Of a DNA stretch of 64,000 nt, positions 11,966 to 49,337 are shown piece by piece. Made by a program: the position numbers and the translations under genes. The notes below the pieces were generated by a model, which saw only the letters and a program-made list of their open reading frames with translations, was not told the origin of the DNA and did no database searches. This stretch comes from a virus. The DNA lies in IMG/VR virus record IMGVR_UViG_3300009415_000002, positions 195-64,194 of that record, one strand, 5' to 3'. Every line of letters starts with the position of its first letter. Within the stretch, counting starts at the first letter, position 1.

Positions 11966-11969
11966 AAAA

Positions 11970-13171: not shown

Positions 13172-16100
13172 TTACACACCATAGTTAGCTCTATCAATGT
13201 TGGCTTGCTTAGCATCACGAATCAATCCGTGAAATTCACAAACTGCAGTTGATAGTTCACCTAACAAGGCGTTATCAAACATATGACTATAACCACCCTC
13301 GTTAAAGAGGATAGCTAAAGGCTTAGCCACATACTGACCGCTAGAAGCATACTCAGCTTCTTCAATGAAGCCCATTTCATATGCAGCACGTTGAGAACCT
13401 TGTGAGATTCTACGAAGAGCACCGAACTTAACAGCTCCAGTTACTCCACCTTGCCACCACTTCTTAACTTCACCAAATCCTTCAAGCTTAGGCATAACAC
13501 GAGTTACGATGCGTGAGCGGATAAGTTGAGTGAAGACTTCTTCAGGAAGGTTAACACCTACAATCTCTTTGATAGCAGCTTGAAGAAGAATAGCTCCATC
13601 ACACCACTCCTCTTTAGGAGTGTTGAAACGAACATCAACTTGCTTCCAGTTGCCCATAGGAGACCAAACCATTTCAGATTCAGTGTCAGTGGATGCAGCG
13701 TTTACTAAGTTGAAGAACAACTCAGCATTTTTGGAATATCCAGATAGGCCTAGACCTTCATAGATAGCACGCCAAGCAATAAGGCTAGCATCAACAACGG
13801 TGTTGAAGCGAGCTTCATCAGGACCAACAGCACGGTCAGCAGCATCAAAGATAAGCTTAGAGCACATACCATAAGATACACCTACAGCAGACTTATAGTG
13901 CTTAGCTACACGAGCAGCGAAATCACCAAGATAAGCAGAAGTGATATAGACTTTCTCGTTAGTCTCAGGGTCTTTTAACTGAGAGTTAAGAAGACAAGCA
14001 TTACCACGAAGGGATTTCTTACCTTGCTTGTCTTTTTCAGAGATGAAGTCAATATAAGGAACGTTAGCACCATATAGATATTCATAACCAGCGATGCCCA
14101 TTTTAGAAGCATTGATTGCGATTACTTTATCAGTGGTGATTTCATAACCAGCAACAGTCTCAAGGTTAATGACAGCAATACCATCGCCATCAGAATCACC
14201 TTCATTAAGAGCATGCCATACTAGTGGGTCAACAACTACGTGAGCGATTCCGCAGATTTGCTCATCATCAGTCAACACAAGACGACCAGCGCCTAGGAAA
14301 GGCATTGGAGTGCGAGTGAAGCCAATATAATAGTTAACGAATGAATCCCAATCTTTAACGCCTAGAAGACGAACGATAGGACAGTTACGGTTAAGAATAA
14401 CTGTTGGGATTCCATCAGCACTGTGAAGCATAGGGTGGAAAGAAGTGCGGACTTTTCCATAGACTAAGTCACCAGAGCGAGTTGCTTTCTTAAGAACGTT
14501 ATTTGATTCAACTGCAGTGTTGATGATTTTGCTATAAGCACTGTTAAGCTTACCGACGATATCACCATCAAACTGGTTGACTCTATTGATGAATAAGTCA
14601 ACAATAAAGTTAACGATAGTCGCAGTCTCACGAGCAGCAGCACCACTAGCAGCACTGAAGCTACCATAGATAGCGACTACGTTAAGGTCAAGTTTGATAG
14701 ACTTAACATTAGCACTTTTGCCAATGAAGAACTTATATTCATTTTGACCAGCGAAGAAGTTAGCAATAGAAACTAGAAGCTTACGGTGTTTGATTCCGAT
14801 AGTTCCGTTAGGGAAGATAGTGCTACTAACTGCAGACATGTCTTCAGTGGTTGCATCAATAACACAAGGAGCTGTGCTAGTGTTACCAGCAAATTCATTA
14901 GCTAAGGTTAAGAAAGACTTAGTTTTATCAATAGACTCAGTGAATAGAGCATCACCAAGTTCTTTGTCTTGAATAGAGACTGCTGCAGCACTTTCAAGAG
15001 TGAAGCTGGACTTGGAAACAGACTCAAGAGCAGTGGAGATTTCCACGTCAAATACGAGCTGACCAAAGATTACGTCAATAGTCTCTTCGACTAGGACATA
15101 CTCATATCCATCAAAAGTTGTGCCTTCGCTAATAACTTTAACGCTATCAAAGAAGGAGTGGCCTTCTTCTGCATTACCAGCTTTAGCTTGCTTTTCAAAC
15201 ACAGACTTAGCCATAGTCATACGAATCTTAACATCATTAAAACGCTTGGATTCTTTCCATTCTTGAACAGCGTTATTTTCATCATAGAGATTAATAACAG
15301 AACCGTCAGCACCAACTAATTCACCGTTAGCGGTGTGAAGGTTGAACTCACCTTGGTCATTAGCGAACATCTCTAGGAGAGCGCCATGGCCTTTAGTGCA
15401 TTCGTTGTTAAGCATGATATCCCAGTGGTTGTTTTGACCAACGAACTCAACTTCATAAGGAAGAGTTGTGAACTTAGTGGCGAAACGACGAGTCTTAACC
15501 CACTGAGTTGTTTCAACAATTTCAACATTGATAGAGATTTCAATGGAGTTCTCATCATTAACAATATTACCAACAGTTCCACTAACAACACGAATATTAG
15601 CAGCATCAGAGCTATTACGAACAAGTTTGTGCTTAACACCATCAACAGAGACTTCAACAATAGTTGCTTTAGGAGCAAAGGTTTGACCTTTAGCAGCATC
15701 AATCTTCTCTTGGATTTTGTTAACAAGAGCAAGTTTGTTGTTAGCATGGTTCATGAATTTATTACCAAAGATGGAAAGAGTGAAAGACTCAGATTCTTTC
15801 TTACCAACATAATAAGTGATATAAGTTTCAGGATTGATAATACCAACACCGGAACCAAAACCTAACTTAGAGTTAGTGAATGCAACATCCATCATTTTGC
15901 CTTTAGTTTTAGCGACTTCACCAGATTGAAGAGCGAATCCAAAGTTAGATGCTACACGGTCATCAAGGTCAGCACAATCATAGTTATTAGCAGCACCACG
16001 GTTGATGAGCTTAGCAACTTTGTTTACATCATTAGGAGTGATGATGCGGTCTAGTTCACGGTTCCAACCAAGACCTGTGGCCTCAGCACCGTCATTAATA

Positions 16101-17512
16101 GTGACAAACTTGATATTAGTTTTATCAGATGCAGCGACTATACCTTGAGCTAGACACCAGCCTAAGAAGCTAGGAGCTTGCTTACCACCAATAAACTCAA
16201 GACCAAAGTGGTCATCACTTACTAAGTTAATACCATTTGCATAGATTAAGTTAGTGCGAACGAAGTGTGCAATGTCATCAGCATCAGGCTTATGACCATA
16301 GTTATGCTCAGGCATAAATAGTTTTACAGCCAAGTTAATACGAGTCTCCAATTGCTTGGAAGTTCCAGCGAAAGCTGAAAGAGCAAATAGAAATACTGCA
16401 TGATTACCATCCAGAACCACAAATTCACTACCAACTTGACCAAAGCAAGAAGCTTTATTAGCTTTAAGAACACGACTGCCTGTGGATACAGTTGCATTAA
16501 GCATATCAATCTCTACACGGTCGCGTTTAACGACGGTGCCGGAGACTGACGCACAGTTGTTGAAAAGAAATCCAGTGAATTGAGCACGTTCTTCAGCACT
16601 TAAGTTATAAGTGGCAGCAGCAATAAGAGCAACCCAGAATCCGCCTGCGTTGACAGGAAGTTTATACTCAGGGTTAGAAGCATTGAATGCTACTCCAACA
16701 CATTCACGGTCACCGTTAGCTTTGATTTTAACAATAGTGAATGCAGCTTTAACAAACTTAAGAACGTTATGTGGGAAAGCAGTTAGGTTTGCGAAACCAG
16801 TTTGCTCATAAGCAAGAGAGCAAGGTGCTAGATTACCAAGTTTATTACCAAACAAAGCAAGGAAAGCATCACGAGATTCAATAGCACGAGCATTGACTTT
16901 GGACTGAGTGGCCCACTTCTTAGCAATCATTTCATCACTAGGGTCTTTGAAGTTACGTTTTAGCTTAGCAACATAAGCTTCTTCAGTTGTGACGTTAAAT
17001 AAAACATCAGCAATAATATCAGCAAATCTCACACCATAACCATTGTGATTAACAATGTTAGATACAATAGTGCTAAAACTAACTAAAGAAGAAACTTCAG
17101 AATAGTCAGCGTTGAATGCAGTGTTGAACATAGTGGATTGAACAGTTGTGTTTGTCATAGTGATTTTGTCCTCAGAAGGGTTAGTGTTAATGTCATTAGA
17201 AGGGTGTTTATCGAGCTTACCCTCAGCTCCATCAGTTTCTTCTTGCTCTACTGACTTAGCAACACAATTAGTGTTAGCCATATAGAATATAGCGTCTTCT
17301 AACTCATCAGTTAGTTGAATACCTAATTGTTCTAATACTTCTTCATAACAGTTAAGAACTGCATCTAAATAAGATAGATCAACATCAAGTTTAGAACTAA
17401 TATCTGCTTCTGCAGCGTTATGGATTTGGATCAAAATGTCTTTCTGAGTCATGTTATTACCTTCGTTAGTGTTGTTAGCAGAGTTGTTGGAAGCAGTGTT
17501 TGAGTTAGTCAT
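13172..17512 (-). CDS. Single-chain two-barrel (beta/beta-prime-like) DNA-dependent RNA polymerase, probable non-virion RNAP
   Basis: Ordered motifs GKMMDVAFTNSKLGFG (cf. beta GQNMRVAF), KTRRFATKF (cf. K..GRHGNKG), DIMLNNECTKG (cf. DIVLNP), GFTRTPMP (cf. NRQP), catalytic ALNEGDSDGDG (cf. NADFDGD). Confidence 0.85.
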   Translation of the reverse strand: MTNSNTASNNSANNTNEGNNMTQKDILIQIHNAAEADISSKLDVDLSYLDAVLNCYEEVLEQLGIQLTDELEDAIFYMANTNCVAKSVEQEETDGAEGKLDKHPSNDINTNPSEDKITMTNTTVQSTMFNTAFNADYSEVSSLVSFSTIVSNIVNHNGYGVRFADIIADVLFNVTTEEAYVAKLKRNFKDPSDEMIAKKWATQSKVNARAIESRDAFLALFGNKLGNLAPCSLAYEQTGFANLTAFPHNVLKFVKAAFTIVKIKANGDRECVGVAFNASNPEYKLPVNAGGFWVALIAAATYNLSAEERAQFTGFLFNNCASVSGTVVKRDRVEIDMLNATVSTGSRVLKANKASCFGQVGSEFVVLDGNHAVFLFALSAFAGTSKQLETRINLAVKLFMPEHNYGHKPDADDIAHFVRTNLIYANGINLVSDDHFGLEFIGGKQAPSFLGWCLAQGIVAASDKTNIKFVTINDGAEATGLGWNRELDRIITPNDVNKVAKLINRGAANNYDCADLDDRVASNFGFALQSGEVAKTKGKMMDVAFTNSKLGFGSGVGIINPETYITYYVGKKESESFTLSIFGNKFMNHANNKLALVNKIQEKIDAAKGQTFAPKATIVEVSVDGVKHKLVRNSSDAANIRVVSGTVGNIVNDENSIEISINVEIVETTQWVKTRRFATKFTTLPYEVEFVGQNNHWDIMLNNECTKGHGALLEMFANDQGEFNLHTANGELVGADGSVINLYDENNAVQEWKESKRFNDVKIRMTMAKSVFEKQAKAGNAEEGHSFFDSVKVISEGTTFDGYEYVLVEETIDVIFGQLVFDVEISTALESVSKSSFTLESAAAVSIQDKELGDALFTESIDKTKSFLTLANEFAGNTSTAPCVIDATTEDMSAVSSTIFPNGTIGIKHRKLLVSIANFFAGQNEYKFFIGKSANVKSIKLDLNVVAIYGSFSAASGAAARETATIVNFIVDLFINRVNQFDGDIVGKLNSAYSKIINTAVESNNVLKKATRSGDLVYGKVRTSFHPMLHSADGIPTVILNRNCPIVRLLGVKDWDSFVNYYIGFTRTPMPFLGAGRLVLTDDEQICGIAHVVVDPLVWHALNEGDSDGDGIAVINLETVAGYEITTDKVIAINASKMGIAGYEYLYGANVPYIDFISEKDKQGKKSLRGNACLLNSQLKDPETNEKVYITSAYLGDFAARVAKHYKSAVGVSYGMCSKLIFDAADRAVGPDEARFNTVVDASLIAWRAIYEGLGLSGYSKNAELFFNLVNAASTDTESEMVWSPMGNWKQVDVRFNTPKEEWCDGAILLQAAIKEIVGVNLPEEVFTQLIRSRIVTRVMPKLEGFGEVKKWWQGGVTGAVKFGALRRISQGSQRAAYEMGFIEEAEYASSGQYVAKPLAILFNEGGYSHMFDNALLGELSTAVCEFHGLIRDAKQANIDRANYGV

Positions 17513-17597
17513 GTTATTAGTCTCCTAAGTGTTAGTGTGTTTATAGAAAATAGATAGCACTTATTTAAAGACACCGCTATCTAGATGTCTAGGTTAA

Positions 17598-21680: not shown

Positions 21681-21682
21681 TA

Positions 21683-34933: not shown

Positions 34934-35219
34934 TATTTCAAAATACATGCTCGTATATAACATAACAGCATTGCCTGCTATTCTATATGCTTCAATGACA
35001 CCCGCTGACGAACCTTTAACATTTGATTCAGATAAATTAGAAATACCACCAGATCTAAATGGTATTCCTATAGAGTTAAGAATTAGTATATATAATCCAG
35101 AAGGTAAGTTAATAGAGTTAGCAAGTAATATGTTACCAGCCAACTCTGTAGTAATTGCTCAAACTGCACAACTCACTGGACTAAAGTTAGTAAAGAAGTT
35201 AATTGACAACTTAAGCTAA
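34926..35219 (+). CDS. Hypothetical protein
   Basis: 97 aa; converges on the giant gene with overlapping ends. Confidence 0.55.
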   Translation: MNNISKYMLVYNITALPAILYASMTPADEPLTFDSDKLEIPPDLNGIPIELRISIYNPEGKLIELASNMLPANSVVIAQTAQLTGLKLVKKLIDNLS

Positions 35220-38200
35220 CACATCAGTATAAATTGTCCCATCCATACTGGGTTCTACGTCTTGAGCTTCTTGTAAGTCAGCTAGATGAGCAAAGTTATC
35301 TGGATTGTAAGTAGAATCAGTCATAACCCAGTAATCACTTATTTCACTATTAGTACCGTCAGTCTCAGCAGCAATCTCTTCATAAGCTGCTTGTTGATTT
35401 CTTTGACGAGATATTCTCTCTGCTACACTAGCACTTAAGTTAGCTACAGGAGCAAAAGAGTCTAGTATATTCTTAACTCCTCCGTTTTGCATTCTAGCTG
35501 CCGTTTTCATAAACACTCCACTAATTAAAGTAGAACTAACAGCAGATATAATAGAGGCCCCTATATTACCAGCAAGCTGTTTACCTGCAGCGTATTTCTC
35601 CATGCCCATAGCACTTAAAGATGGATGAGCTTTCATACCCAAAACATTTCTTTCTATTTTCTGATTAATCCAAGGAGTAGCTACAGCATTAAAACTAGTA
35701 GATACTACTTCTTGAACAGCCATCTCCGCCACAGCCATGCCTATATTATCATCACCATGCCTAGCTAAAGCATTTTTAAATTTGAATACTCCTGTTAGAG
35801 CTTTAGCACCTGATACTTTTCTCTTATAAGCATTGGGATTAGGATCATCAATTGAACCTGCTCTAGCGTATTGAAAAGCTGTTACAGTAGCTCCACCTAA
35901 AGCTTGAAGCTGGTTATCATCAACATTACCTTCTGATATCATTCCACCAACACCAGTTAAAAGAATAGGAACTAAAACATCTAGTCCAGTAGAAACCTTG
36001 TTTTTAGACATAGCTCTAAGACCTGCATCTCCTACTTTATTTAGTACAGATCCTTTCTTAGTAACATCACTCATGTCCATATACATCTCTCTTGCCATCT
36101 TTTGTTGTCTGATGACCTGTTGATTTCTACGAGCAGCCTGATACTGAATATTGTCCTTAACCATCTTTTTACCTTCCATAGTGATTTGTTCATCACCAGG
36201 TAAAAAGTCTCTAAGAATTTTATCTACTTCCTCATCGTTATTAAATGCATACTCATATAAAGCTTCTCTACCCATCATCTCAGCACTAGCAGCTTGTTGA
36301 CCAGTAAGACTTCGTTCATTCATTTCTACAAAAGCATCTAATATATCATTCTCTACTCTTATTAATTTACCACTACCTTTGTACTCACTAGAATCCTTAA
36401 CTACTGTAAGAGACTCATCAGCTTCTTGATAAACAAATCTTTCATCAGCCTCGTCTATCATACGAGCATTAAACCCTTTCCAATCTTTAGTCTCATCAGA
36501 AGTAGCCCTACTCCATAGTTGACCTTTATCTTCTGTACCAACTAAGTTTTTATAAACTACTTTTTTAAGAATATAGTCTTGTTCTACTTTATCAGCAGTA
36601 GTAAAATCTTTACCGTCTACGCTAAGAACTTCTTTATTAGCATTAACAAGCTCACTAAGAACACCTCTGTACATTGCACTAAAGATTCCCATACCTTGTG
36701 CACCTAACTTCTGCTGAGAAGCAAGTTGAGCCATTGTAGTCATTAACTCAGAACCAGCCATGTCTCTAATATTATGAGACCCTTCTTCTCCTGGCATATT
36801 ACCAGTCTCTTGTGCATTAGCTACATTCTTCCTCATAAGTTCAGTAAGAGTAAAGTTTTCCATTCTTTCTCCATCTTTACCAAACAAAGGATCAATTTGT
36901 TGTCTTGTAGTTTCGTATACAGAATCAAACTGTAGTAAGTAGGTTTCAACACTTACTCCTTGCTTTCTTGCAACGTCAGTCAATTCTTTTTGATACTCAG
37001 AAGTTAATACTCCTTTGTCATCATAAGCACTATCTAAATCTAGCTTCAAATGCTGAGCTAAGGCTGATTTCTGATCTAAGTGAATATCAAATTTATCCCC
37101 TTCTATATTAAGATTAGACAAGTATTTTTTATTTAAATACTCTAACATCTCATGATCTTCAGACATAGGTTGCCCATTCTCAAATCTGTTAACTAAAGCA
37201 ACTTTAGAAACTTTGTGAATCTGTTTGTTCTGACTAGCAAGTTTTAGTTTTTGAGAAGCAGCAAAACTAGTCATAATTTCAGAACTTTGTTTATTAGAGT
37301 TATCCATATGATATGAAGTAACCATTGAAGCTACGTTTCTAGCAGTTTGATATCTAGCCACTGCCATTAGAGAATGACTATCAGCCGATATATCATCACG
37401 ACTACCAATAGATTTATAGTTAGGATCTCTAGCAGCTAACTTAGCATTAATCTGTCTAAACTCATAACTATTACCAACCTCTTTTCCTCCCAGGAATCTA
37501 GATTCATAATCCATTAAGTTCATGCCTTTGTTAGTAGATTGATTAATTAAATAATCCATATCCATAAGAGACTTAAGACCAGGTCCTGGACCTAGTTGAG
37601 AAGCCATACCATCAATAACGCTATCTCTTTGACGTTTAAGATCTTCATACTCAGCTCTATCTTTTTTACTTAAGTCAGCTATATCCCCAGATTCAAAAGC
37701 AGCAATCTGAGAAGACTTCTCGTTATATACTTTTGAGTTTTCCTGTAGAGAGCTCATCATATCTCCATCAGTTTTTAATTTGATGCTATCTCTTAATAAC
37801 TGGTGGATATTCTTCATAAAGCTTTGGGTACCTTCAGCATTACTAACAGCTTGTCTAGTGGTTTCTTGATATTGATTAAACTGTTCAGCATATATTTCTT
37901 TTGCTGCTTGAGCTTGAGTCACACCAGTTTTATTAGCATAATCTACAACTTCATTTCTACGATCTTCAGATAATCTACTTATATCAAAAGAATCTTCATC
38001 TTGGAAATAATGTTTTCTTACTGCTTGATGTAGTTCACTATCAGTGTCCATCATTGCTCTACCACTACTAATAGTAGGAGCATCTTGAAATGTACTACCA
38101 ATAATAGTGTTATAAGTTTTACCTAGGATTTCCCCACCAGCTTTACCCAACGTTTTAAGTACAATATCAAACACTGGCTCAGTCATATCCATACCCACGG

Positions 38201-41200
38201 CTTGACTAGTAAACTTAGATAAAGTATCAGCTTCTTGAGTTTTATTAAATATTTCTCCACCAATCCATTGACCTAAGAAAGCTCTTTGACCTGCTTTACG
38301 TTTCTCATCATCAGAAGCAACATTCTTAAGCATGTCTACATATCTAAGCATGTTATCTTGATCGTTAGCAAAGTTAGATAGTGTTCCAGCGTAAGCTTTA
38401 AGAGTAACAGAGTCTTCTCCTTCTGCTTGTAATGCTCTTAGAAAATCTACTTGGCCCTGTTTTTCAGATCCACTAGATACTTCTGCCTCTAATATTTCTA
38501 ATCTCTTAGATATTTGCTCTCTAACTAAAGCAACATTAGGTTGGGCAGTCTCTCCTTTAGCAGTATTAGTATTAGGATCTAACTTAAGTTTGTGTAAGAA
38601 CTCTATTCCTTCAGCAGGATCAGTGCCTTGGTATCCTAGTAAGGCATCCATAGCAGTATTTACAGCCATCATTTTTCCTGCTTGACCGTATAAGCCTTCT
38701 ATAATATCAGTACCTTGGCCCATTAGAGCATTAAGTTCATCAGCACCCATAGTACGACCACCAAAGCCAGTTATAGCTTTATCTTGATCATCAAATCTTT
38801 CTTCACCAGTAATAGCATCTCTTAACTGTTCTCCTTGTTCAACAAAGAATCTTTCATCCATTCCAAGATAACCAGCAACTTGCTTACGCATTCTTTCTGT
38901 CAAAAGTCTACTACCAGCTGCAGACTGTTCTTGTAGTTTTTGTTGAGCATATTTAAACTTAGCTTCTGCTTGCACTTTCTTTCTTCTAGACTTAGCATAC
39001 TCTTGTTGAAGAGTCTTACCTTCGTCTTCATTAGAAGCCCCCTCTGCAATTTGTTTACTATATGAATTAGATAAAGCGGTTTGTTTATCAACTTCTAATC
39101 TAGCTTCACTCATATACTTTTGGTAATCAGATGCTCGATTCATAACAGTGGTATAAGGGTCACCATCCCAGTCACCACCACCAAAGGTAACAATACCTAG
39201 AGAAGCCATCCAAGACCCTGTTTGACCTCTAGAAATATCGCTAGTCATCTTTGTAGTTTCTATACCTGTTTGACCTACTTGTATCTCACCAGAAAGTTGA
39301 GCCACCCTATTTAAAGCGTGAACTCCTTCCATCAATCTATAAGTATGTAAACGAGGATCTGTACCACCTGGAGTAGGAGAACGAAATACCTCTGCAAGCT
39401 CTAAATTACTTCTATCTAAATCTTCCATCTCCATACGAACATAACTAAAGAGATCTTCGTAATCTCCTATATTCATATGCTTTTCATTAAGATCCAATTT
39501 AAGACTTTCTAGCCTTTGAATAATAGTTTTAGTTCTTGTTTCATATTCACTATGAGCTGCTGTAATACGAGACTCTTGCTCTGAATCTGTTTTGACTTGA
39601 GTAGTGCCATCTTTGTTCTTGAGTTTAGATTGAGACTCTCTAGTCATAGAGAACTTTTTCATATCCTCCATTCTATTCTTATACATTTGAATAGTTTCGT
39701 TAATTTGCTTTTCCGCAAACTTCTTCTGGACTGCATCTCGACTACCTGAAGAACCAGACTTATTAAATGCTTCCCCTATTTCTTTAATAGCATTAACAAC
39801 ACTCTTTGTAGGATCTTCATAATCTGAAGTACCAGCAGCTTTAGTCTTACCTGTAAATAATGTATGTTCAGCTAACTGAGTACTTGTTTTACCAAGACCT
39901 TCAAAGATAGTTCCATCATTCATTATCATTCCTACTTCCTTAAAGCGAGCAACTTTTCTATTAAGATATCCTACTTGCTCACTACTTAAATGTTGTCTAG
40001 CAGGATTAATACTAGATAGCTCAATACGAGCCAACATAGCATCGTAGTTCATTACAGTAGCATGATATATAAATGCATTAGCAGGATCTAATCTGTTCTT
40101 TATACCTTCTTTATCAAAGTAGTTTATTCTCTCTGCTGCTTCGTTTCTAAGTTTTAGTATAGAGCTTTTTAAAGTATCATAACCTTTACGTCTATCATCT
40201 TGAGACAGTCCTTTAGCACTTTCATAAGCAACTACTCTCTCAGTAATATTAAGAGATTGTCTCTTTATCTGTTTAAACTCATCTCTATGTGCAGCATCAA
40301 TACCTTCTCTAAGAGCAGAAGCTTGTCTTCTGTAGAACTGACGAATCTTTCTAACATCGGTTAAATCATCATCTCTAATAACTTCACCATTTAAAAACTC
40401 TGTTTTATCTCTAGTGCGACGATTATCATATACAGTTTGAGCCATTTGAGAACCATCTACTTCCATAGCTACTTCTCTAGTGACTACTTTATATGTATCA
40501 GAATACTCAGTAGCTTCAGATATTGTATTAGTTTTTATTACAGTTCTATTAATTTCTCTTTCTCGACCTACAGTAGCTATATAAGCCTTAGTAGTATCTT
40601 CAACAATATCATCTGTGATAATACTTTTTATCTTAGCTGTCTCACCTGGTTTTCTAGTAGCCTTAGTAGTATCATCTTCTTCATAAAAGAATTCTCTTCT
40701 AGTTTGTTCTTCCTGATATTCAAAGACATCAAAAGCCTCAACTCTGTAATTAAGCTTATGTATTTGTGCCTCTACTTCTCTTATAGTAGAAGTTCTTTCA
40801 CCATCATGTACAACACTCTGTACTCTACGAGTTTTACCTTTAACCTTATTAAGAAGTTGAGACTCTTGATCTTCTGTTATAGCTCCCCTTTCTACAAGAG
40901 CACTTAAAGTTAGATTAGATTTAACATCATTTCTAGCCCAAAAATCAGGAGTATTCTTAGAGATATCTAGTTCTGCATCAGCATACTGTCTTAGTTCTGC
41001 AGAACTATCTACTAAGTATTTCTGCATATTTCTAATGTCTTCTTTATTAGCTGCCATCTCAGGTAAACTAACAAGACTTTCTAATTGATCATAAGCTCTT
41101 TGTAAAGTTGTAACTGTAGTAAATACATTATCACGTTGTACATCTTTACTCATACCAGAAGCACCCGCTACGTAACCTAACTTTCTTAAGTCATGTAACT

Positions 41201-44200
41201 GATAAATAGTATCTTTAACTTCTTTAAGATGCTTACTATTACTATTAGTTTCTACTGCTTTACTTAAAGATGAGAAGCTATTGTATAAACCTGAACCCAT
41301 TTCTATATAGACTCTTTCAACAGCACTGCCGGCATACTTGCGACTGCTTCTCATTGACCTCATATTCTGAGTTGTTTCTTTTAGAAGTGCAGTACGCTCT
41401 TCATAAACTTCTAATCCTAACTCCTGTTGTTTTGATACAGCCATAGCAGCAGAACCAAATGGCATTAAGTTGCTACCAATACCTGTACTTGTAAAACCTT
41501 GATATTTAACTTTACCAGCGTTGGCCTCTTGCATACGAGCACCAGCTACTGCTTTCTCAATTTCTACTTCCATAGTAGCTGCTGCCTCCATTACAGATTG
41601 TAAAGCTTTAGTCTCATCTGTAGTAAGAACAATACTTATACCTGTTTGAGCTCCTGCTCTTACTTTTTCAAAGGCTACGTTAGCTATATTACCTGGAGTA
41701 AAGATTGCAGTTAAAGCTTTATAGTTTTGTACTACGGGATCTACAAAGTCAGCATGCTGTGCACCTAAGTTTCTCATTATCTGAGCACTAGGAATAATAG
41801 TAGACATGCCTTTAGATTTATCTATATGTGCAACTACCTGACCATACTGTTGATCAAAAGAAATACCAGGTAATGTAATATACATACTTTCATTACTCAT
41901 ATTAGCTAAGTATTCTTTTGTATTAGTTTTACCTATTACTTTACTAGCATTTTGTTGATGAGAATCATTCATAGCCATAAGTCCTCTTTCAACATCATCT
42001 AGTTGTTGCATAGCAAACTCACGACCACCTTTTTCAATGATTCTTTGTACATGTCTTTCTCTATCAGTAGAAGTTAAGTACCCATACTTAGCCTTTACAA
42101 AGTTTTCAACCTTAGTACGACCATCATCTGTAATAGAGTTAGCTTTCCACTCATAAGCACCCTCAGTTATATCTTTGTTAATATTTGTGTACATATCAAC
42201 AAAATCCTGGGTATAAACCCCTGTTGTTCCACCTTGGTAAAAACCTAAGAACTTTCTCTTCTCAAAAGAACTAAATAAGTAATTAGATTCTGCTTCTACT
42301 AAGTTGCGGGCTTTTCTTGAACCAAATTGATTAGCGTTTTGAGTTCCATACATAGTTAAACCAGACTTCATATTAGAAGTCATAGCAGCTAAGCTAGCAA
42401 CAGTATGTTTAATCTTACCTAACTGACCTGTCTCTTTATATTGTTTAATATCACCTAGATAAGGAGTTATTAAATGCTGCCCTTCATGTCTAGCTACAGA
42501 TTGAGTACCAGTTGGATCCTTACTATAAGAGAATGTAATATCACTAAAGATAGAAACAGCAGTTATCTGAGTAGAGAGACCTTCAATCATCTGCATTAGC
42601 ATTTCTCTATTTTCATCATCTATATCAGTAGGAGCTCCTAATACATTTAACATTACAGCTCTGTAATCTGGGTTAGATATGTCTATATCTCCAGGTACTC
42701 TCATACTAGAACCACTAGCTGATAATTGATGCATAAAGTCAACAGCAGTAGTAATGATAGTCGCCTGTCTATCCATTTGACTATCAAAGTTAATAGATCC
42801 ATAAGCTGCTGCATTTTTAGCAGTAGGGTCTACCAAGCTTCTAACTGCATGTAGTAATTCATTAGATTGAGAACCATCACCTGCTAATACATTAGACAGC
42901 ATAGTACTAGTAATACCTCTAAGACCACCTACTGATATATCAGAGAATGCTGACTTAGAAGTTAAGCTTTCAAATAACAAATCAGAACTAATTTCAGATC
43001 TTGATCTACCGTACTTATCTTTAGCCATTGCTTTGTCAATACTACCATCCATACCTATTTGTACAGCAAGAGCAGCAGTAAGCTTTTGATAATGTTTTCC
43101 ATACTCACCTTTAGCCAAGCCTTCTATTAAAGCTTGTTGTAATTTACGGGCTTCTGCAGGTTCAGAGTTATAACCAGATATATCTTTTCCTTTTTTTCTA
43201 TCTTCAAAATAACCTTTCATATTCAAAGCTTCACCAGAAGCACTTGTAGTTATAAAACTACCTCCGAACTGAATAAGTAAAGCTCCTGCTACCTTTTTAG
43301 CTGCAGCAATATCCGCTTCACCTTTAGCTCCAAATAACTCATCTAACATAAAGTGAGATTTAGTTCCATCTTCACCAGTTCTTAGTGAGCGCATTATAGT
43401 AGCACCGTGACTCCAGAAGAAAGACTTGAAGTTATTAGAGTTATATAGTCCATGTACTGTAGATGATAAAGGAGTATAACCATAAGTACCGTCTTGGAGT
43501 TTAGTATAATCACTAGCCTCGTTTACAGTAGCTCCTAGTACACCGTCTTTTCTCATATCTAAGTAAGCTTTTAAAGAACCACCAACTTCATTAGCATACA
43601 TTTGCTGCTCTAAGTGCTGGAAAGTATTCATTTCTACTTCTCGTCTTTCACCATCTATGTGAGTCATAAATTTATTACGACCTGCAAAGTTAGCTACACC
43701 TTTAATTAATGCACCACTATCTGTACCTTCAACTCTTCGACCACTTCCTGGCATAACAGAACGTAATCTGTGGAACATTCCTACATATTCGTTGTTATCA
43801 AAATTACCACCTCTATGATAAGCATCCATTAAGTAGTCAATACTTTGTTCTCCACTACGTCTGTAAGTAGCCATTTCTGAAGTACCGAGAGTAGGAGAAC
43901 CAACTGGACTAAATGAGGTATTGTCAACAACATTTTTTATAGTAGACATATTACCTTTATGGTCAGCAACACCTACTATCTTCCAGTCTCCATCAATCTT
44001 TCTCTTTAGAACAGTAGAATTAGTATTAGGATCTTGAACAATTATGTCTCCTCTCTTTTGGAGAACCTCATAACCACCTTCACCAATCATTGAGCCTTTT
44101 ATACTCTGTTGTTGAGTTTCTATATAACCTTCTCTCATTCCTCTTGCCAAGACTCCTTCACCAGGTTCTAACTGCCCAGGTCTTTCTAACACTAAGTCAG

Positions 44201-47200
44201 GGTCATCTATATGCCATTCATTAGCAAGACGTCTATTGTAAGCACCTTTACTTGTGTATACAGAGCCGTATAAAGGGTTAGCAAGGAAAGTATCAGTATA
44301 CGTACCTCCAAGCTGTATAAGAGCCATAGAGTAGCGCATATGATCACTACCAGCTAACATCTTACCTAAGTTTAGATCTAAACTAGCTTTAAGAACTTCT
44401 ACTCTTAACAATTCCTCCTTCATTTCATCAGTAACAGAGTCACCAACAGTATCTTCTATATCTTTTCTAGTACGCATTAAGAAATTCATCTGTTGTTGAT
44501 TCATAACAGATTTAGTATTACCAGAGAACACAGCTCCTAAAGAAGAATGTGAATCAGCAAAAGCGTTTCTAGAGACAGTACCTATATTAGTAACTTGTCT
44601 AGCTAATCTTATAACTTCTATATGATCATCACCTAATATTTTTCTTTTAGCCTCAAGCTCTTTCATAAGAGCTTCTCCACGAGCTTGAAGACCCATTTTT
44701 CCATCACTACCTTTAAGTAGCTTTTCTCTATTTCTCTTAAGGTAATTATCAGTTAGCTGAGACATACTGTCACCAGTAGAATACTCACCATCTAAACTTC
44801 TTTCTGATACAGCTTGTGCAGCTACCCCAAATTGATAAAGAGGTCTAGCACCTAAAGCATTTTTTATACGCTGAGGCAACTGTGATACTTTCTTAGCGTC
44901 TCCAGTGTAAAACTGTAAAGCAGTATCTTGACCTTGGAATGTATTTTTTAATCCCTCTCTATAATGTTGAATTGCAATTTCAGCAGCATCTTTGTTAGTG
45001 ATATTACCTTGGGAATCTCTTCTAAAGAACATTTCCATTTGCTCGTCCTTAAGAAGCATTTGGCCTTCAGCATCTCTTGCAAACTCCCCATTACCATCTT
45101 GAGAGAAATAAGCATTGGCATGTACCATATTACCTATACCAACAGAAGACAGTACACGAAGATTATCTGCTGTACCCATTTGTCTAGCTTCTTGAGCAAA
45201 GAATACAGAGTCTAATGCATCATCATACTTATTCATAGAAGTAGACTTACTAGCGATACTTCTATATAAGACTGCATTAATATCTGTAGTAGGTCTATAA
45301 GCTAAAGGAGTAATACGAGCAAACATTCCTACATTCTTTATAGAACTAATAACTTGCCCATTTTCATCTCGTGGTTGTTCTCCAAATAAATACTGAACAC
45401 TATCTTTATCATTTCTATTACCAGCAAACCCCATCATTACTGTACGGTAGACAGCCTGTTGTCCACCATAAGTTCTTCCCTCTCTACCCTGTAAGAAAGA
45501 ATCAAATAGACTAGCTTGAAACTGTTTAAACCTATTAACTTCTAATGCTTCTCCAGCATTTCCTCTGACGCTATTCATCATGTCTGAAGCTAAAGAAGGA
45601 GATAGTAAAGCTAAGGTTTCTAAATGCTTAGCAACAGAACCATCCATGATTCTTTGTCTTTCTTCATAATCTCCACTAGCAGCCACTCTTCTTAAAGCAC
45701 CTACTAAACCTTCCTGACCTTCTTGACTACCAGAGGCAGCTAGACCAAAGAATGCTTTATGTAATCCTAAAGTAGTATCTATCTCTGAACTACCCAGTTT
45801 CTTCTGACCAAATAGAGACACACTAATATCACCTATTAACTTTTCTGTCTCTAAGTTAAAGGCTTCTTTACCATCTTCTGTTCTACTTACACTGATATTA
45901 GATATGAAGTTTTGCATAGAGCTTACTTTAGCACCAGTTTCAGTGTTCATAGTATCACCATAACCAGTAAGCATCTTGGACATATAACTAGTAGCTATAT
46001 TTCTTCTATCTGTTTGACTAGTAATTGATGCGTACTTAGCTTGTTGAGATTCTACTCCAAAACGACTATCTGCTTCACCTAATATAGTTGCAAATAGTTG
46101 AGGAACTATATCTAGAGCACTCATGTAAGCACTTTGTCCAGACTGAAGATCTACTCTTCCATCTTCCAACCCTGACTTAAAATCATCATCATAATTATTT
46201 CTACCTAGAACACTAATAGCACTTCCACTATTATTAGCAAATATACCATTACCTACTATTTGACTTTTATCTACAAAGTAAACAAATGCACCTGCATCAC
46301 CATCATCAGTACGAGCGTTAAATAGGTTACTACCTCTATTAGGTCCATTAAGTACAGACAACTCAAATTGTAGTTTAGGTAATCTTGAAGTAGATGCTAA
46401 ATATCCTTTTGCTCCTAATGCCTGAGTTAGATCTAAACTTACATTAATAGAAGTAAGACCACTACCACTTGTGTCGCCGTATCTATCAACAATCTTAAAG
46501 GCCGATTCAGACACACCTAAAGTCTTGCGCATTTGCTCTAGTCTATTTTTAAGAATAACTAGTCCACCTGTATTAATATTACGCTGCCATAGAGGTTCAG
46601 TTCTAATAGCATTGTAGTTAGGATTAGTAATCTCGTTATTACCTAGTTGATTCCAAGTAGTGCTTAAATGCTGCATTGCTAGATTTAATTCATACCTTTC
46701 CTCTTCTTGGTCTAAACTAAAATCATTATTAAGAGGAGTAAACTCTGGATCGTTATCCATATAATAAGCATCATATCTTTGAGCCACTCTAGCTTGATGA
46801 GCTGATGCTCTACTTAGACTAGTAGATACATTTCTGTCTCCAAGCATCAATCCTATTTCAGTATTAGTTCTATCACCATCTCCAGGAATATACATAGGCG
46901 TACCCTGTTTTGATGTACCACCTTCTATACCCATAGAATATTGACCCATGTTAGAAGACCCCATGTAGTAAGATACTAATTTAGGATCTACGCCCTTATT
47001 GTTATATTCCATTAATCCAAAGCTCTTAACGTGCTGTCTAGGAGCTTTAGCCATAGTAATATTATCTGAAGCCATACCAATAATTTGCTTCAAATCAGAC
47101 TCACTAAATCCAGCTTCTTTTGTGAAACCTTGTACTCTAAGTAAAGTCATCATCTTACCCATTTGAGTAGAGTAAGAACTATCACTTGTAGAAGTAGACG

Positions 47201-49337
47201 GGTTAAACAAAGAGTACCCAGCCATTAGACCTAGATTTCTACCATACTTATTATAGTTAGATTTAAGTCTTTCACTCCCACTCTTTTCTATCTTTTGAAC
47301 AAGAGGATTAATAATTTGTTCTCTATAGTTTTTAGCATCAACAGTAACAGATGCTTTTCCGGTTATTAATAAGTCAAATAATTTATCTTGAGCTTGATAA
47401 TATCTTTGAGTTTGGAAGTTTTCTTTTCCGTAAGCACTAGAAACTTCTTTACCCATTTCTCCAGCTAAAGCAATGTTTTTAGAAGTATCACCTAACTGAA
47501 GCATAAAAGCCTGATCAAGCACCATAAACATATGAGTACTTGTACCAGTGGTAGTTTCTTTTGCGTACCCACCTCTAGTATTACCACCAACTACATCAAA
47601 TCTTTTCTCATGAGCATAGTTCAGAGTGTTCTTTAAGTGCTGCCAAATATCTCCAGCGAATCCTACCTGCATACCTCTAGATTGAGAAAGAATAGGAGTA
47701 GCGGTACTACCTCCTTTTCTACCTACATCATTTCGGCTATAAGTTAATTCCTCGTTAGAGATACTTTCTATTTGTCTATATAGTAAAGACTGAGTTACAT
47801 CTCCAGTTTTAAGAGCTACATCTCTTTGTTCAGTCCAAGTATCTCCTCTACCTTGTCTAGTATTAAGACGAGCAGCATTTAAACTTCTATCATCTTTATA
47901 TTTATTAACAACAAACCGCATAGTTTCAAAGTTGCTACCAGCTTGGTTAACACTATTACCTACAGGTCCTGTTAAGTTTTGAGTACCTATCCCTGCTACA
48001 TTATCTGTTAAGTAAAGTTTGGGGTGGAACTTCTTATCTCTAAACTGTATATTTAATTTAAAGTAATCCTTAATATCAACTCCAGTAATACCCATTTGTT
48101 GTAAAGTACCTTGAAGTTGTTCTTGTATAGCCTGTAGCTTTAAAGCTTCAATTAAGTTAGGACCTAGTATATTGTAATTAGTTGAACCTACACCGTACCT
48201 TCCTTCTTCAGTGGAAGTACCATCTAAGTCTCTTTGACGAGGATAAGCTAAAACAAAATCTACTTCAAATGCTTTGTTATTACCTGATGCTACGTTTTCT
48301 AATACTCTACGTTGAATTTTATCTATTAAAGCAGCACTGATAGCCTCGTTCTGAAACTGGAAGGATTGTATACTAATTTTATTTTCTGCTGTATTCACTA
48401 AATCCACAAAATTAGCAATACCAGCTTTATCTACATAACCACCTTGAGTAGCTGCACTACTTCTATTACCTAAATTATTATTAATGAGTTCAAGAGCGCT
48501 AACTAAATCTTTTGGATCAGTTTTTTGTTGAAGAGCACTAGCATGTATATCTGCAGAGTTAGCTAGTCTATTACGTTCACCTACTGTACCATTAACTAAA
48601 GTATTTCTTATAGTTCTACGAGCACTTGATAAACCACTACCTGTCATAGATAATTGATTTATCATTGACTCTCCATGGAATCTTTGAAATTCAACATCTA
48701 ATCTATCTACAATATTTTGACTATCGTATAAAGATCTATTCACATTATCTTTAAGAACTCTAGCTGCAGCAGTAGCAGCCATGTCATCTGGATTAGTGTT
48801 AGCCAATTGAGTTGATAAAGCAGAAGTACCATCTTCTAAGTTTTCATAGGGTGCAAATACATTATCGTATAATGCTCTTGAACCAAAAAAATCTTCATCA
48901 TCTCCTCCACCAAAACCACCTCCACTTAATATTTCACCAGTAAATCTATTAAAGGCATTACTAGTACCAAATCTAAAAGGAGATGAATTTACTTCAGCAA
49001 ACTTACTAGCGTTCATTACAGTTTCATCTGCAATAGTTGCTCCTAGTCTACTATTAAAAGCTCTATTGTGTCTTGCTTGCTGAACTGTACGATTATCACT
49101 ATCAGAATCTATACCTAATTCATTATTCCAATCTCTTTCAAGTTCTCTAACAGAGTTTTCCATTTGAGGAAGGAACTCATCTCTATCAGCAAATGCACGG
49201 CCATCTATGCCTTCATTTAACACATTAATCATTGTGTGAAATCTGACAGCATTACCTAAAGCAGTACGTTGATACTGATTAGTTCCCAAGGTACTTTTAA
49301 GGGAATCTATTCTATGTTGTGATCCTTCTCTTGACAT
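35211..49337 (-). CDS. Giant multidomain protein: PLD (two HKD) domain + two-barrel RNA polymerase + helical C-terminus; putative virion RNAP / tape-measure or ejection protein
   Basis: HPKLYLTD..GTQN (aa ~438), HVK..GSSN (aa ~769); MALIQLGGTYTDTFLANP (~1670), GRRVEG..IKGV (~1865), GLYNSNNFKS (~1960), GKVKYQG (~2607), FRSP (~3317), GGGDWDGD (~3388); hydrophobic segments near C-terminus. Confidence 0.8.
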   Translation of the reverse strand: MSREGSQHRIDSLKSTLGTNQYQRTALGNAVRFHTMINVLNEGIDGRAFADRDEFLPQMENSVRELERDWNNELGIDSDSDNRTVQQARHNRAFNSRLGATIADETVMNASKFAEVNSSPFRFGTSNAFNRFTGEILSGGGFGGGDDEDFFGSRALYDNVFAPYENLEDGTSALSTQLANTNPDDMAATAAARVLKDNVNRSLYDSQNIVDRLDVEFQRFHGESMINQLSMTGSGLSSARRTIRNTLVNGTVGERNRLANSADIHASALQQKTDPKDLVSALELINNNLGNRSSAATQGGYVDKAGIANFVDLVNTAENKISIQSFQFQNEAISAALIDKIQRRVLENVASGNNKAFEVDFVLAYPRQRDLDGTSTEEGRYGVGSTNYNILGPNLIEALKLQAIQEQLQGTLQQMGITGVDIKDYFKLNIQFRDKKFHPKLYLTDNVAGIGTQNLTGPVGNSVNQAGSNFETMRFVVNKYKDDRSLNAARLNTRQGRGDTWTEQRDVALKTGDVTQSLLYRQIESISNEELTYSRNDVGRKGGSTATPILSQSRGMQVGFAGDIWQHLKNTLNYAHEKRFDVVGGNTRGGYAKETTTGTSTHMFMVLDQAFMLQLGDTSKNIALAGEMGKEVSSAYGKENFQTQRYYQAQDKLFDLLITGKASVTVDAKNYREQIINPLVQKIEKSGSERLKSNYNKYGRNLGLMAGYSLFNPSTSTSDSSYSTQMGKMMTLLRVQGFTKEAGFSESDLKQIIGMASDNITMAKAPRQHVKSFGLMEYNNKGVDPKLVSYYMGSSNMGQYSMGIEGGTSKQGTPMYIPGDGDRTNTEIGLMLGDRNVSTSLSRASAHQARVAQRYDAYYMDNDPEFTPLNNDFSLDQEEERYELNLAMQHLSTTWNQLGNNEITNPNYNAIRTEPLWQRNINTGGLVILKNRLEQMRKTLGVSESAFKIVDRYGDTSGSGLTSINVSLDLTQALGAKGYLASTSRLPKLQFELSVLNGPNRGSNLFNARTDDGDAGAFVYFVDKSQIVGNGIFANNSGSAISVLGRNNYDDDFKSGLEDGRVDLQSGQSAYMSALDIVPQLFATILGEADSRFGVESQQAKYASITSQTDRRNIATSYMSKMLTGYGDTMNTETGAKVSSMQNFISNISVSRTEDGKEAFNLETEKLIGDISVSLFGQKKLGSSEIDTTLGLHKAFFGLAASGSQEGQEGLVGALRRVAASGDYEERQRIMDGSVAKHLETLALLSPSLASDMMNSVRGNAGEALEVNRFKQFQASLFDSFLQGREGRTYGGQQAVYRTVMMGFAGNRNDKDSVQYLFGEQPRDENGQVISSIKNVGMFARITPLAYRPTTDINAVLYRSIASKSTSMNKYDDALDSVFFAQEARQMGTADNLRVLSSVGIGNMVHANAYFSQDGNGEFARDAEGQMLLKDEQMEMFFRRDSQGNITNKDAAEIAIQHYREGLKNTFQGQDTALQFYTGDAKKVSQLPQRIKNALGARPLYQFGVAAQAVSERSLDGEYSTGDSMSQLTDNYLKRNREKLLKGSDGKMGLQARGEALMKELEAKRKILGDDHIEVIRLARQVTNIGTVSRNAFADSHSSLGAVFSGNTKSVMNQQQMNFLMRTRKDIEDTVGDSVTDEMKEELLRVEVLKASLDLNLGKMLAGSDHMRYSMALIQLGGTYTDTFLANPLYGSVYTSKGAYNRRLANEWHIDDPDLVLERPGQLEPGEGVLARGMREGYIETQQQSIKGSMIGEGGYEVLQKRGDIIVQDPNTNSTVLKRKIDGDWKIVGVADHKGNMSTIKNVVDNTSFSPVGSPTLGTSEMATYRRSGEQSIDYLMDAYHRGGNFDNNEYVGMFHRLRSVMPGSGRRVEGTDSGALIKGVANFAGRNKFMTHIDGERREVEMNTFQHLEQQMYANEVGGSLKAYLDMRKDGVLGATVNEASDYTKLQDGTYGYTPLSSTVHGLYNSNNFKSFFWSHGATIMRSLRTGEDGTKSHFMLDELFGAKGEADIAAAKKVAGALLIQFGGSFITTSASGEALNMKGYFEDRKKGKDISGYNSEPAEARKLQQALIEGLAKGEYGKHYQKLTAALAVQIGMDGSIDKAMAKDKYGRSRSEISSDLLFESLTSKSAFSDISVGGLRGITSTMLSNVLAGDGSQSNELLHAVRSLVDPTAKNAAAYGSINFDSQMDRQATIITTAVDFMHQLSASGSSMRVPGDIDISNPDYRAVMLNVLGAPTDIDDENREMLMQMIEGLSTQITAVSIFSDITFSYSKDPTGTQSVARHEGQHLITPYLGDIKQYKETGQLGKIKHTVASLAAMTSNMKSGLTMYGTQNANQFGSRKARNLVEAESNYLFSSFEKRKFLGFYQGGTTGVYTQDFVDMYTNINKDITEGAYEWKANSITDDGRTKVENFVKAKYGYLTSTDRERHVQRIIEKGGREFAMQQLDDVERGLMAMNDSHQQNASKVIGKTNTKEYLANMSNESMYITLPGISFDQQYGQVVAHIDKSKGMSTIIPSAQIMRNLGAQHADFVDPVVQNYKALTAIFTPGNIANVAFEKVRAGAQTGISIVLTTDETKALQSVMEAAATMEVEIEKAVAGARMQEANAGKVKYQGFTSTGIGSNLMPFGSAAMAVSKQQELGLEVYEERTALLKETTQNMRSMRSSRKYAGSAVERVYIEMGSGLYNSFSSLSKAVETNSNSKHLKEVKDTIYQLHDLRKLGYVAGASGMSKDVQRDNVFTTVTTLQRAYDQLESLVSLPEMAANKEDIRNMQKYLVDSSAELRQYADAELDISKNTPDFWARNDVKSNLTLSALVERGAITEDQESQLLNKVKGKTRRVQSVVHDGERTSTIREVEAQIHKLNYRVEAFDVFEYQEEQTRREFFYEEDDTTKATRKPGETAKIKSIITDDIVEDTTKAYIATVGREREINRTVIKTNTISEATEYSDTYKVVTREVAMEVDGSQMAQTVYDNRRTRDKTEFLNGEVIRDDDLTDVRKIRQFYRRQASALREGIDAAHRDEFKQIKRQSLNITERVVAYESAKGLSQDDRRKGYDTLKSSILKLRNEAAERINYFDKEGIKNRLDPANAFIYHATVMNYDAMLARIELSSINPARQHLSSEQVGYLNRKVARFKEVGMIMNDGTIFEGLGKTSTQLAEHTLFTGKTKAAGTSDYEDPTKSVVNAIKEIGEAFNKSGSSGSRDAVQKKFAEKQINETIQMYKNRMEDMKKFSMTRESQSKLKNKDGTTQVKTDSEQESRITAAHSEYETRTKTIIQRLESLKLDLNEKHMNIGDYEDLFSYVRMEMEDLDRSNLELAEVFRSPTPGGTDPRLHTYRLMEGVHALNRVAQLSGEIQVGQTGIETTKMTSDISRGQTGSWMASLGIVTFGGGDWDGDPYTTVMNRASDYQKYMSEARLEVDKQTALSNSYSKQIAEGASNEDEGKTLQQEYAKSRRKKVQAEAKFKYAQQKLQEQSAAGSRLLTERMRKQVAGYLGMDERFFVEQGEQLRDAITGEERFDDQDKAITGFGGRTMGADELNALMGQGTDIIEGLYGQAGKMMAVNTAMDALLGYQGTDPAEGIEFLHKLKLDPNTNTAKGETAQPNVALVREQISKRLEILEAEVSSGSEKQGQVDFLRALQAEGEDSVTLKAYAGTLSNFANDQDNMLRYVDMLKNVASDDEKRKAGQRAFLGQWIGGEIFNKTQEADTLSKFTSQAVGMDMTEPVFDIVLKTLGKAGGEILGKTYNTIIGSTFQDAPTISSGRAMMDTDSELHQAVRKHYFQDEDSFDISRLSEDRRNEVVDYANKTGVTQAQAAKEIYAEQFNQYQETTRQAVSNAEGTQSFMKNIHQLLRDSIKLKTDGDMMSSLQENSKVYNEKSSQIAAFESGDIADLSKKDRAEYEDLKRQRDSVIDGMASQLGPGPGLKSLMDMDYLINQSTNKGMNLMDYESRFLGGKEVGNSYEFRQINAKLAARDPNYKSIGSRDDISADSHSLMAVARYQTARNVASMVTSYHMDNSNKQSSEIMTSFAASQKLKLASQNKQIHKVSKVALVNRFENGQPMSEDHEMLEYLNKKYLSNLNIEGDKFDIHLDQKSALAQHLKLDLDSAYDDKGVLTSEYQKELTDVARKQGVSVETYLLQFDSVYETTRQQIDPLFGKDGERMENFTLTELMRKNVANAQETGNMPGEEGSHNIRDMAGSELMTTMAQLASQQKLGAQGMGIFSAMYRGVLSELVNANKEVLSVDGKDFTTADKVEQDYILKKVVYKNLVGTEDKGQLWSRATSDETKDWKGFNARMIDEADERFVYQEADESLTVVKDSSEYKGSGKLIRVENDILDAFVEMNERSLTGQQAASAEMMGREALYEYAFNNDEEVDKILRDFLPGDEQITMEGKKMVKDNIQYQAARRNQQVIRQQKMAREMYMDMSDVTKKGSVLNKVGDAGLRAMSKNKVSTGLDVLVPILLTGVGGMISEGNVDDNQLQALGGATVTAFQYARAGSIDDPNPNAYKRKVSGAKALTGVFKFKNALARHGDDNIGMAVAEMAVQEVVSTSFNAVATPWINQKIERNVLGMKAHPSLSAMGMEKYAAGKQLAGNIGASIISAVSSTLISGVFMKTAARMQNGGVKNILDSFAPVANLSASVAERISRQRNQQAAYEEIAAETDGTNSEISDYWVMTDSTYNPDNFAHLADLQEAQDVEPSMDGTIYTDVLA

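Follow-up and report, generated by a model that had tools for sequence, protein, structure and literature searches.

A predicted single-chain, two-barrel RNA polymerase in the small-gene region of a marine virus, with homologues in Microcystis phages

Introduction

Characterised single-chain relatives of cellular RNA polymerase (RNAP) are few (YonO, crAss gp66, and P23-45 gp64 and gp96), and each of them has informed the understanding of how the enzyme can be minimised. YonO is known as a single-polypeptide phage RNAP with a DxDGD motif. Thermus phage P23-45 provides the demonstrated precedent for a virion and a non-virion two-barrel RNAP in one phage; its gp96 and gp66 of phage phi14:2 are virion RNAPs of the two-barrel superfamily. 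Here we describe P0001, the product of a gene at positions 13172-17512 of a 64,000-nucleotide stretch of viral DNA (the window; positions 195 to 64,194 of IMG/VR record IMGVR_UViG_3300009415_000002). We propose, with a probability of about 0.8 and on the basis of predicted structures, that P0001 is a non-virion, single-chain, DNA-dependent RNAP that transcribes the later phage genes. The first-pass annotation of the window had suggested a non-virion, single-chain, two-barrel RNAP, and our analysis supports it, with the fold taken from predicted structures and the non-virion part deduced. The source record is 65.4 kb long and estimated to be 39% complete, and its sequence occurs in marine DNA metagenome runs only and in no RNA-seq run.

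Results

P0001 is collinear with beta and beta-prime subunits

The gene is a minus-strand open reading frame (ORF) for a protein of 1446 residues, with an ATG start and zero internal stops. It is preceded by a GGAG Shine-Dalgarno sequence (17522-17525, 9 nt 5′ of the ATG) and, further upstream, by an AAATAAG element (17560-17566, coding strand), both of which had been pointed out in the first-pass annotation. The five motifs on which that annotation was built, GKMMDVAF, KTRRFATKF, DIMLNNECTKG, FTRTPMP and ALNEGDSDGDG, are all present in P0001, the last two at the positions it had given. The motifs are beyond chance, since their key residues are invariant across the 19-20 metagenomic homologues that were aligned (26-71% identity). 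The invariant residues comprise D1106, D1108, D1110, G1105, G1109, G1111, R1067, P1069, M1070 and K1020, together with K673, R675, K680, N702, E704, K707 and G708 on the beta-like side. The E. coli rpoB and rpoC products were taken from the MG1655 record, and five motifs of P0001 are collinear with beta followed by beta-prime:

Residues 538-545 (15878-15901), GKMMDVAF: P0001 GKMMDVAF...GFGSG; beta GQNMRVAF...GYNFED
Residues 673-681 (15470-15496), KTRRFATKF, and 698-708 (15389-15421), DIMLNNECTKG: P0001 VKTRRFATKF...LPY...DIMLNNECTKG...LLE; beta GDKMAGRHGNKG...MPY...DIVLNPLGVPSR...ILE
GKVR motif: P0001 GKVRTS; beta-prime GKRVDYS
Residues 1065-1071 (14300-14320), FTRTPMP: P0001 FTRTPMP; beta-prime NRAPTLH
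Residues 1101-1111 (14180-14212), ALNEGDSDGDG: P0001 ALNEGDSDGDGIAV; beta-prime AYNADFDGDQMAV

An unconstrained local alignment sets the DSDGD segment on beta-prime 446-468. The DxDGD segment is the only one recovered in this way, and the other four correspondences rest on order and pattern. Residues K673, R675, K680 and K707 belong to motifs that correspond in order to GDKMAGRHGNKG and PSR in E. coli beta, and on this basis they would be equivalent to K1065, K1073 and R1106.

Predicted structure of P0001

Structure prediction indicates that P0001 almost certainly has the two-barrel RNAP fold with an intact active site. The AlphaFold model of the core (residues 440-1446) has a predicted local distance difference test score (pLDDT) of 86.9 and a predicted template-modelling score of 0.86; a second AlphaFold model, of the N-terminal half, has a pLDDT of 84. 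The core model was searched exhaustively against 48,161 PDB representatives, and its best matches include maize RDR2 (Z 11.7, 408 residues), QDE-1 (10.4), P23-45 gp96 RNAP (10.2) and P74-26 gp62 (9.7). Isolated double-psi barrels fit model residues 574-700 (residues 1013-1139 of P0001) with root-mean-square deviations of 2.0-2.4. The first half of the core resembles the beta-like subunits of Pol I/III, vaccinia, African swine fever virus (ASFV), AR9 and PhiKZ, and the second half (residues ~1013-1425) resembles Pol I A190, archaeal RpoA' and M. tuberculosis beta-prime. Both halves have counterparts in single-chain enzymes, and Foldseek's own list agrees. Beta-prime/Rpb1 chains align up to about residue 1423 (model residue ~984), past the candidates for the bridge helix and trigger loop. 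The N-terminal half matches second-largest subunits only, from their N-terminal domains through the barrel and including the flap-like insert; chain residues 44-1049 of 7eu0_B are aligned to residues 6-711 of its model, and the other top matches cover similar ranges.

In the AlphaFold database, the yeast killer plasmid pGKL2 supplies the best Swiss-Prot match, its fused RNAP (E 6.5e-8, template-modelling (TM) score 0.26, both barrels). The best clusters there are single-chain proteins of 1052 and 1262 residues (E 9e-13 and 3e-9, query residues 2-1004), which bear the automatic name DNA-directed RNA polymerase. The predicted structure of the homologue from Microcystis phage MaMV-DC gives a match with TM scores of 0.73/0.87. 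A PolD-like DNA polymerase was also considered and dropped because there were zero PolD chains among the structural matches. The regions of P0001, all on the minus strand, are as follows:

13172..17512, complete ORF, single-chain fused beta-like/beta-prime-like RNAP (PHROG 30979, E 6e-120; homologues)
17141..17512, residues 1-124, N/T-rich N-terminal extension, poorly conserved
15959..17140, residues 125-518, N-terminal beta/Rpb2-like region (predicted structure against second-largest subunits)
15818..15958, residues 519-565, first half of the beta-like barrel, GKMMDVAF...GFGSG (G553, S554 and G555 invariant)
15515..15817, residues 566-666, flap-like insertion separating the two barrel halves on the beta side (matched at residues 442-542 of the N-terminal model by the beta-flap structures 3tbi_B and 3woe_A)
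15338..15514, residues 667-725, second half of the beta-like barrel, KTRRFATKF, LPY, DIMLNNECTKG...LLE (invariant residues; motif order)
14477..14998, residues 839-1012, mostly helical inter-barrel connector in a clamp-like position (model secondary structure; role suggested by position only)
14096..14476, residues 1013-1139, beta-prime-like catalytic barrel (GKVR, FTRTPMP, NEGDSDGDG)
14183..14197, D1106-S-D1108-G-D1110, predicted catalytic metal-binding triad (invariant in both alignments)
13832..13939, residues 1192-1227, 36-residue helix, bridge-helix candidate (model helix 753-788; assigned by position)
13175..13816, residues 1233-1446, helical C-terminal region with a trigger-loop-like helix pair at 1233-1275 (model; invariant residues)

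The alignment of residues 125-518 with second-largest subunits begins near the N-terminus of those chains, at chain residue ~35-56. In the relatives of P0001, about 290-810 residues precede the conserved core, the start of which is aligned to residue 440 of P0001. Invariant positions include H1205, Y1206, G1211, Y1214, G1215 and S1218 in the bridge-helix candidate and W1247, Y1251, E1252 and G1253 in the trigger-loop-like helix pair.

A broad family with interruptions at the catalytic codons

The first-pass annotation had considered P0001 too diverged for simple annotation, and this was borne out: Pfam at E<=10 gave zero matches, including RNA_pol_Rpb2_*, RNA_pol_Rpb1_* and the RNA-dependent RNA polymerase (RdRP) family PF05183, and the sole PHROG match was PHROG 30979, of unknown function (E 6.1e-120, residues 444-1420 against profile positions 701-1650 of 1677). 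Searches of the PDB by sequence and by family-alignment profile gave no useful match, and a language-model atlas returned only sub-threshold leads for P0001, including an RdRP neighbourhood. When 1.84 billion representatives were searched with a profile, the family comprised 218 clusters at E<=1e-3, and 133 of these at E<=1e-30. The signature of P0001 is R1067-T-P1069, 36 residues, and D1106-S-D-G-D1110. With [RK]xP located 20-100 residues before DxDxD, which is the filter of PMC10770324 (Suppl. Data 4), the pattern is present in 99 of the 110 family members of at least 1150 residues, mostly as DSDGD, DGDGD or DTDGD. Nine of the remaining 11 long members are N-terminal pieces of interrupted genes. 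A pattern-seeded scan with two peptide patterns over one genome per prokaryotic species found zero relatives, and thus, within these two patterns, the family looks viral or metagenomic only. Three very long metagenomic proteins, P0115 (3218 residues), P0120 (3231 residues) and P0135 (2889 residues), contain an RNAP module of the same family near the C-terminus, with NNGD[ST]DGDP (E 1e-40 to 1e-49).

In many relatives (P0018-P0025, P0043-45, P0062, P0095 and others), the polymerase gene is interrupted within the DxDGD codons, at one of three points: after EG, after EGDS or after EGDSDG. The interruption is followed by another ORF, of 300-345 residues, whose product starts with ..DGI(A/S/G)LLN. 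In metagenomic locus L003 (JGI 3300055046 contig, 11040-12400), the interruption is a 1.3-kb insert with a LAGLIDADG homing-endonuclease ORF. Rfam recognised no known intron in the sequence that interrupts the L003 homologue, and for relatives of this type the full DxDGD could not be rebuilt from the two pieces. Homing elements typically target essential, conserved sites.

Homologues in cultured Microcystis phages

A tblastn search of 50,697 phage records matched P0001 to only nine, all Microcystis phages (Ma-LMM01, MaMV-DC, MaMV-DH01 and others), and megablast against phage genomes gave no match. The nine homologues are 31-33% identical to P0001 over residues 446-1435 (E ~1e-100) and are all annotated as hypothetical. 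The cultured Microcystis phages carry the same gene, very probably that of a polymerase. The homologue of Ma-LMM01 is gp064, a protein of 1673 residues in which the similarity to P0001 starts only at residues 444-446 of the latter. Its gene, like that of P0001, lies in a small-gene region, with the early genes gp054-063 immediately downstream. According to the Ma-LMM01 transcriptome paper, gp064 belongs to expression sub-cluster B5 together with genes labelled middle-promoter, and its mRNA rises with the middle genes. A search of the accessible literature found no paper that recognised the P0001 family as a polymerase; the Ma-LMM01 and MaMV-DH01 papers state that these phages are without an RNAP of their own and rely on host sigma-70 transcription (PMC5780444, PMC9927357).

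Gene context and the 4708-residue protein

The gene of P0001 lies amid short minus-strand genes of unknown function; that they form an early region, as the first-pass annotation has it, is an interpretation. The virion module occupies 50-64 kb of the window, where a Mu-type portal and other large plus-strand genes begin at 50.3 kb. The nearest virion-associated gene, which encodes a 4708-residue protein (35211..49337, minus strand), is 18 kb from that of P0001, and the portal gene is ~33 kb away. Locus L003 is syntenic, with small upstream genes, the polymerase and the downstream gene.

The 4708-residue protein contains RSPTP, about 70 residues, and GGGDWDGDP at residue 3389, which is the same [RK]xP...DxDGD signature. 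It is a candidate virion RNAP, which we regard as a lead. The Microcystis phages with P0001 homologues also hold weak matches to part of it, and the language-model atlas gave no leads for this giant-protein region. Neither BLASTP nor hhalign detected significant similarity between the 4708-residue protein and P0001 or its family profile, and P0115, P0120 and P0135 are likewise without BLAST similarity to it. A recent duplication linking P0001 to the giant-protein polymerase is therefore rejected, and an ancient one cannot be judged.

Beside the small-gene region are a GIY-YIG and helix-turn-helix homing-endonuclease-like gene (25582-26451, plus strand), a full-length CTP synthase gene (PyrG; 26777-28387, minus strand) and a gene with a periplasmic-binding-protein domain (28567-29625, plus strand).

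Cis elements in the small-gene region

The AAATAAG upstream of the P0001 gene is part of a larger element:

17551..17590, minus strand, class B copy before the P0001 gene: 7-bp stem, 8-nt loop, TT, AAATAAG, T, 8 nt complementary to the loop

In class B elements, a 7-bp stem closing an 8-nt loop is separated by 2 nt from AAATAAG, and after one further nucleotide comes a segment of 7-9 nt whose sequence complements that of the loop. They could form a pseudoknot-like shape or two alternative hairpins, and they are followed by a CA-rich leader (..TAAACAC..). The window has five clean copies on the minus strand, with cores at 13105-13111, 17560-17566, 18128-18134, 23794-23800 and 25173-25179; in L003 (323-15600) there are about 18, ahead of nearly every small gene. 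The complementarity between the loop and the downstream segment averages 6.96 nt, against 4.22 +/- 0.24 nt for permuted partners, and 0 of 2000 permutations reach it. Between the window phage and the L003 phage, the architecture is kept and the stem sequence is not. The stems vary and AAATAAG is fixed, so a single-stranded structure, of RNA or DNA, is under selection. The bare heptamer is marginally enriched in the window (41 occurrences against 29.5 +/- 5.6 in shuffled sequences, with 5 of 100 shuffles reaching 41). Class B elements are candidate promoters, processing sites or terminators, and the element at 17551-17590 is a candidate phage-specific promoter or RNA signal controlling the P0001 gene.

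Elements of a second type, class A, occur as 12 near-identical intergenic copies at 18316-23135 (minus-strand reading), one per gap between short genes. Each consists of a GC hairpin (GGGyC-TTCG-GGrCC, the loop often being TTCG) followed by CTTATTTTGTA and often by a TATAAT-like sequence. They lie ~25-35 nt ahead of each small gene and score as intrinsic terminators. Between 10.5 and 26 kb, terminator-like hairpins are enriched (18 against 7.6 +/- 2.6 in shuffles), and sigma-70-like promoters are not (39 against 50.9 +/- 6.4). A similar arrangement of hairpin, T-run and TAGTGG..TATAaT precedes gp064 and gp066 of Ma-LMM01.

Discussion

Proposed role of P0001 and alternatives

Based on the predicted fold, motif order, active-site conservation, breadth of the family and gene context, P0001 very likely transcribes phage DNA, an activity that we infer. 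A compact beta/Rpb2-like module (residues 125-845), made up of N-terminal domains, the first double-psi beta-barrel and an insert resembling the flap, would be fused to a beta-prime/Rpb1-like module (residues ~1013-1446), in which the second barrel, with the Mg-binding D1106-x-D1108-G-D1110 loop, is followed by a long bridge-type helix and a C-terminus of helices. Facing one another, the two barrels would make up an active site as in cellular RNAPs, in which K673, R675, K680 and K707 may bind the 3′ end of the RNA and the incoming nucleoside triphosphate. The enzyme would be made in the infected cell and, independently of the host polymerase, would use phage-specific signals to read phage genes of a later class. 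Production after infection and use for later genes is a timing that seems rather more probable than the contrary. The first genes, perhaps including that of P0001 itself, might be read by the putative polymerase inside the 4708-residue protein, a scheme that parallels the two-polymerase scheme of P23-45. We speculate, tentatively, that Fukuivirus-like phages (the marine phage, its metagenomic relatives and the Microcystis phages) use a largely host-independent two-polymerase cascade, in which an injected giant-protein polymerase starts at the structured, sequence-variable AAATAAG elements and expresses, among others, P0001 for the later genes.

It is unlikely that P0001 is instead packaged in the virion and ejected to transcribe the first genes. 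Such a role would agree with the same-family modules inside P0115, P0120 and P0135, since proteins of 2.9-3.2 thousand residues have a format typical of ejected proteins, and with the virion RNAPs that exist in the superfamily (P23-45 gp96, phi14:2 gp66). However, the gene of P0001 belongs to the small-gene region, far from the genes of the 4708-residue protein and the portal, and it is the separate 4708-residue protein with its RSP...DWDGD signature that adjoins the portal. Furthermore, gp96 is flat and has no clamp in the places where the P0001 model shows a full helical connector and C-terminus, and the mRNA of Ma-LMM01 gp064 follows the middle, not the late virion genes. We also consider it improbable that P0001 is an RNA-templated polymerase akin to RDR2 and QDE-1, or an enzyme that makes primers for replication and is no transcriptase. 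RDR2 and QDE-1 combine both barrels in a single chain, as P0001 does, and they have the top core-model scores (Z 11.7-10.4, 385-491 residues aligned), an outcome that the first-pass annotation had counted against its own proposal. They are absent, however, from the matches of the N-terminal half, which as described above are second-largest subunits only; P0001 is without PF05183, and it comes from a double-stranded DNA phage. Very improbable is a catalytically dead RNAP descendant kept as a nucleic-acid-binding or structural protein. Some acidic residues are missing on the beta side, and joining the gene pieces, as we read them, would leave one group of relatives with an incomplete DxDGD. Yet the three aspartates, RxP and the lysine and arginine residues are invariant despite identities as low as 26%, the signature is kept in ~90% of the long members, and the intervening sequences target exactly the catalytic codons.

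Several observations weigh against P0001 as a non-virion transcriptase of later genes. Its non-virion status is deduced from gene position only, and a search for the virion proteome of a relative found none with which packaging of P0001 could be excluded. No sequence method (Pfam, PDB sequence and profile searches) ties P0001 to any RNAP family, and both structures are predictions from shallow alignments of 16-20 sequences. In the beta-like barrel, GSG replaces the acidic pair E813/D814 of GYNFED in E. coli beta, and the K...K spacing is 7 compared with 8. Upstream of the window's virion genes, a count of 10-mers revealed no recurrent sequence that could be a late promoter. According to the Ma-LMM01 transcriptome paper, each of the three gene classes is preceded by sigma-70-like motifs, and no motif specific to the phage was found; this argues against a phage polymerase, or at the least does not require one.

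The homologues belong to cultured, ecologically important phages of bloom-forming Microcystis, for which the published model says the opposite of what we propose. Since the papers deny these cultured phages a polymerase, the claim is directly testable in an existing host-phage system. If P0001 is a transcriptase, the "no host shut-off" transcriptome of Ma-LMM01 would be read differently. The cascade, if true, would overturn the view that an unmodified host polymerase acts throughout Ma-LMM01 infection, and would add a structure-specified class of promoters to the two-barrel polymerases.

Comparison with known polymerases

By the sequence and profile searches made here, P0001 belongs to no described family. 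YonO of the Bacillus prophage SPbeta, a single-polypeptide DNA-dependent RNAP with two barrels (PMC5467207), is ~100 kDa in size and absent from the top 30 Swiss-Prot structural matches of P0001, and tblastn against the phage records matched Microcystis phages only. The likeness to pGKL2 ORF6, the best of those matches, comes from Foldseek of predicted structures only.

The first-pass annotation had likened P0001 to gp64 of P23-45. This is upheld by structure, with P74-26 gp62 among the best matches, and not by sequence, as hhalign of the family profile against gp64 gave a probability of 0.4%. With its 616 residues, gp64 (PDB 8f5m, with P74-26 gp62) is less than half as long as P0001. In RefSeq NC_009803.1, gene 64 of P23-45 (P23p64, 5291-7141) is labelled "head protein", although it was experimentally shown to be a non-virion RNAP. 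The comparison with the polymerase region of gp96 (8h2m) gave a probability of 1.4% and an E value of 0.036, short of family membership; this alignment nonetheless pairs RxP and DFDGD of gp96 with RTP and DSDGD of P0001. In contrast to the flat, clamp-less gp96, P0001 has a helical connector and C-terminal region in its model. Neither a Microcystis phage nor a DSDGD or DWDGD motif is listed in the survey of two-RNAP viruses in PMC10770324. The profile comparisons with gp64, gp96 and the giant protein are weak and the survey is without the motif, and therefore we read P0001 as a distinct family within the two-barrel superfamily, with an architecture nearer to fused beta and beta-prime. We read it as working like the single-chain phage RNAPs.

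The phage of P0001 is a myovirus-type relative of Fukuivirus, whereas P23-45 is a long-tailed siphovirus. Together with the giant-protein polymerase, P0001 would extend the two-polymerase strategy of P23-45 to contractile-tailed phages. Its modules have the order of the E. coli-type subunits, beta-like and then beta-prime-like, in one chain of 1446 residues compared with ~2750 for E. coli beta and beta-prime. The DSDGD of P0001 is preceded by an extra residue (NEGD versus NAD in E. coli), and P0001 has no identified alpha, omega or sigma-like partner. The P0001 family is larger than YonO, crAss gp66, gp64 and gp96, and seems to retain a whole miniature beta, including the flap. With this miniature beta fused to a beta-prime-like module, P0001 would thus be intermediate between the cellular core enzyme and the minimal enzymes of phages.

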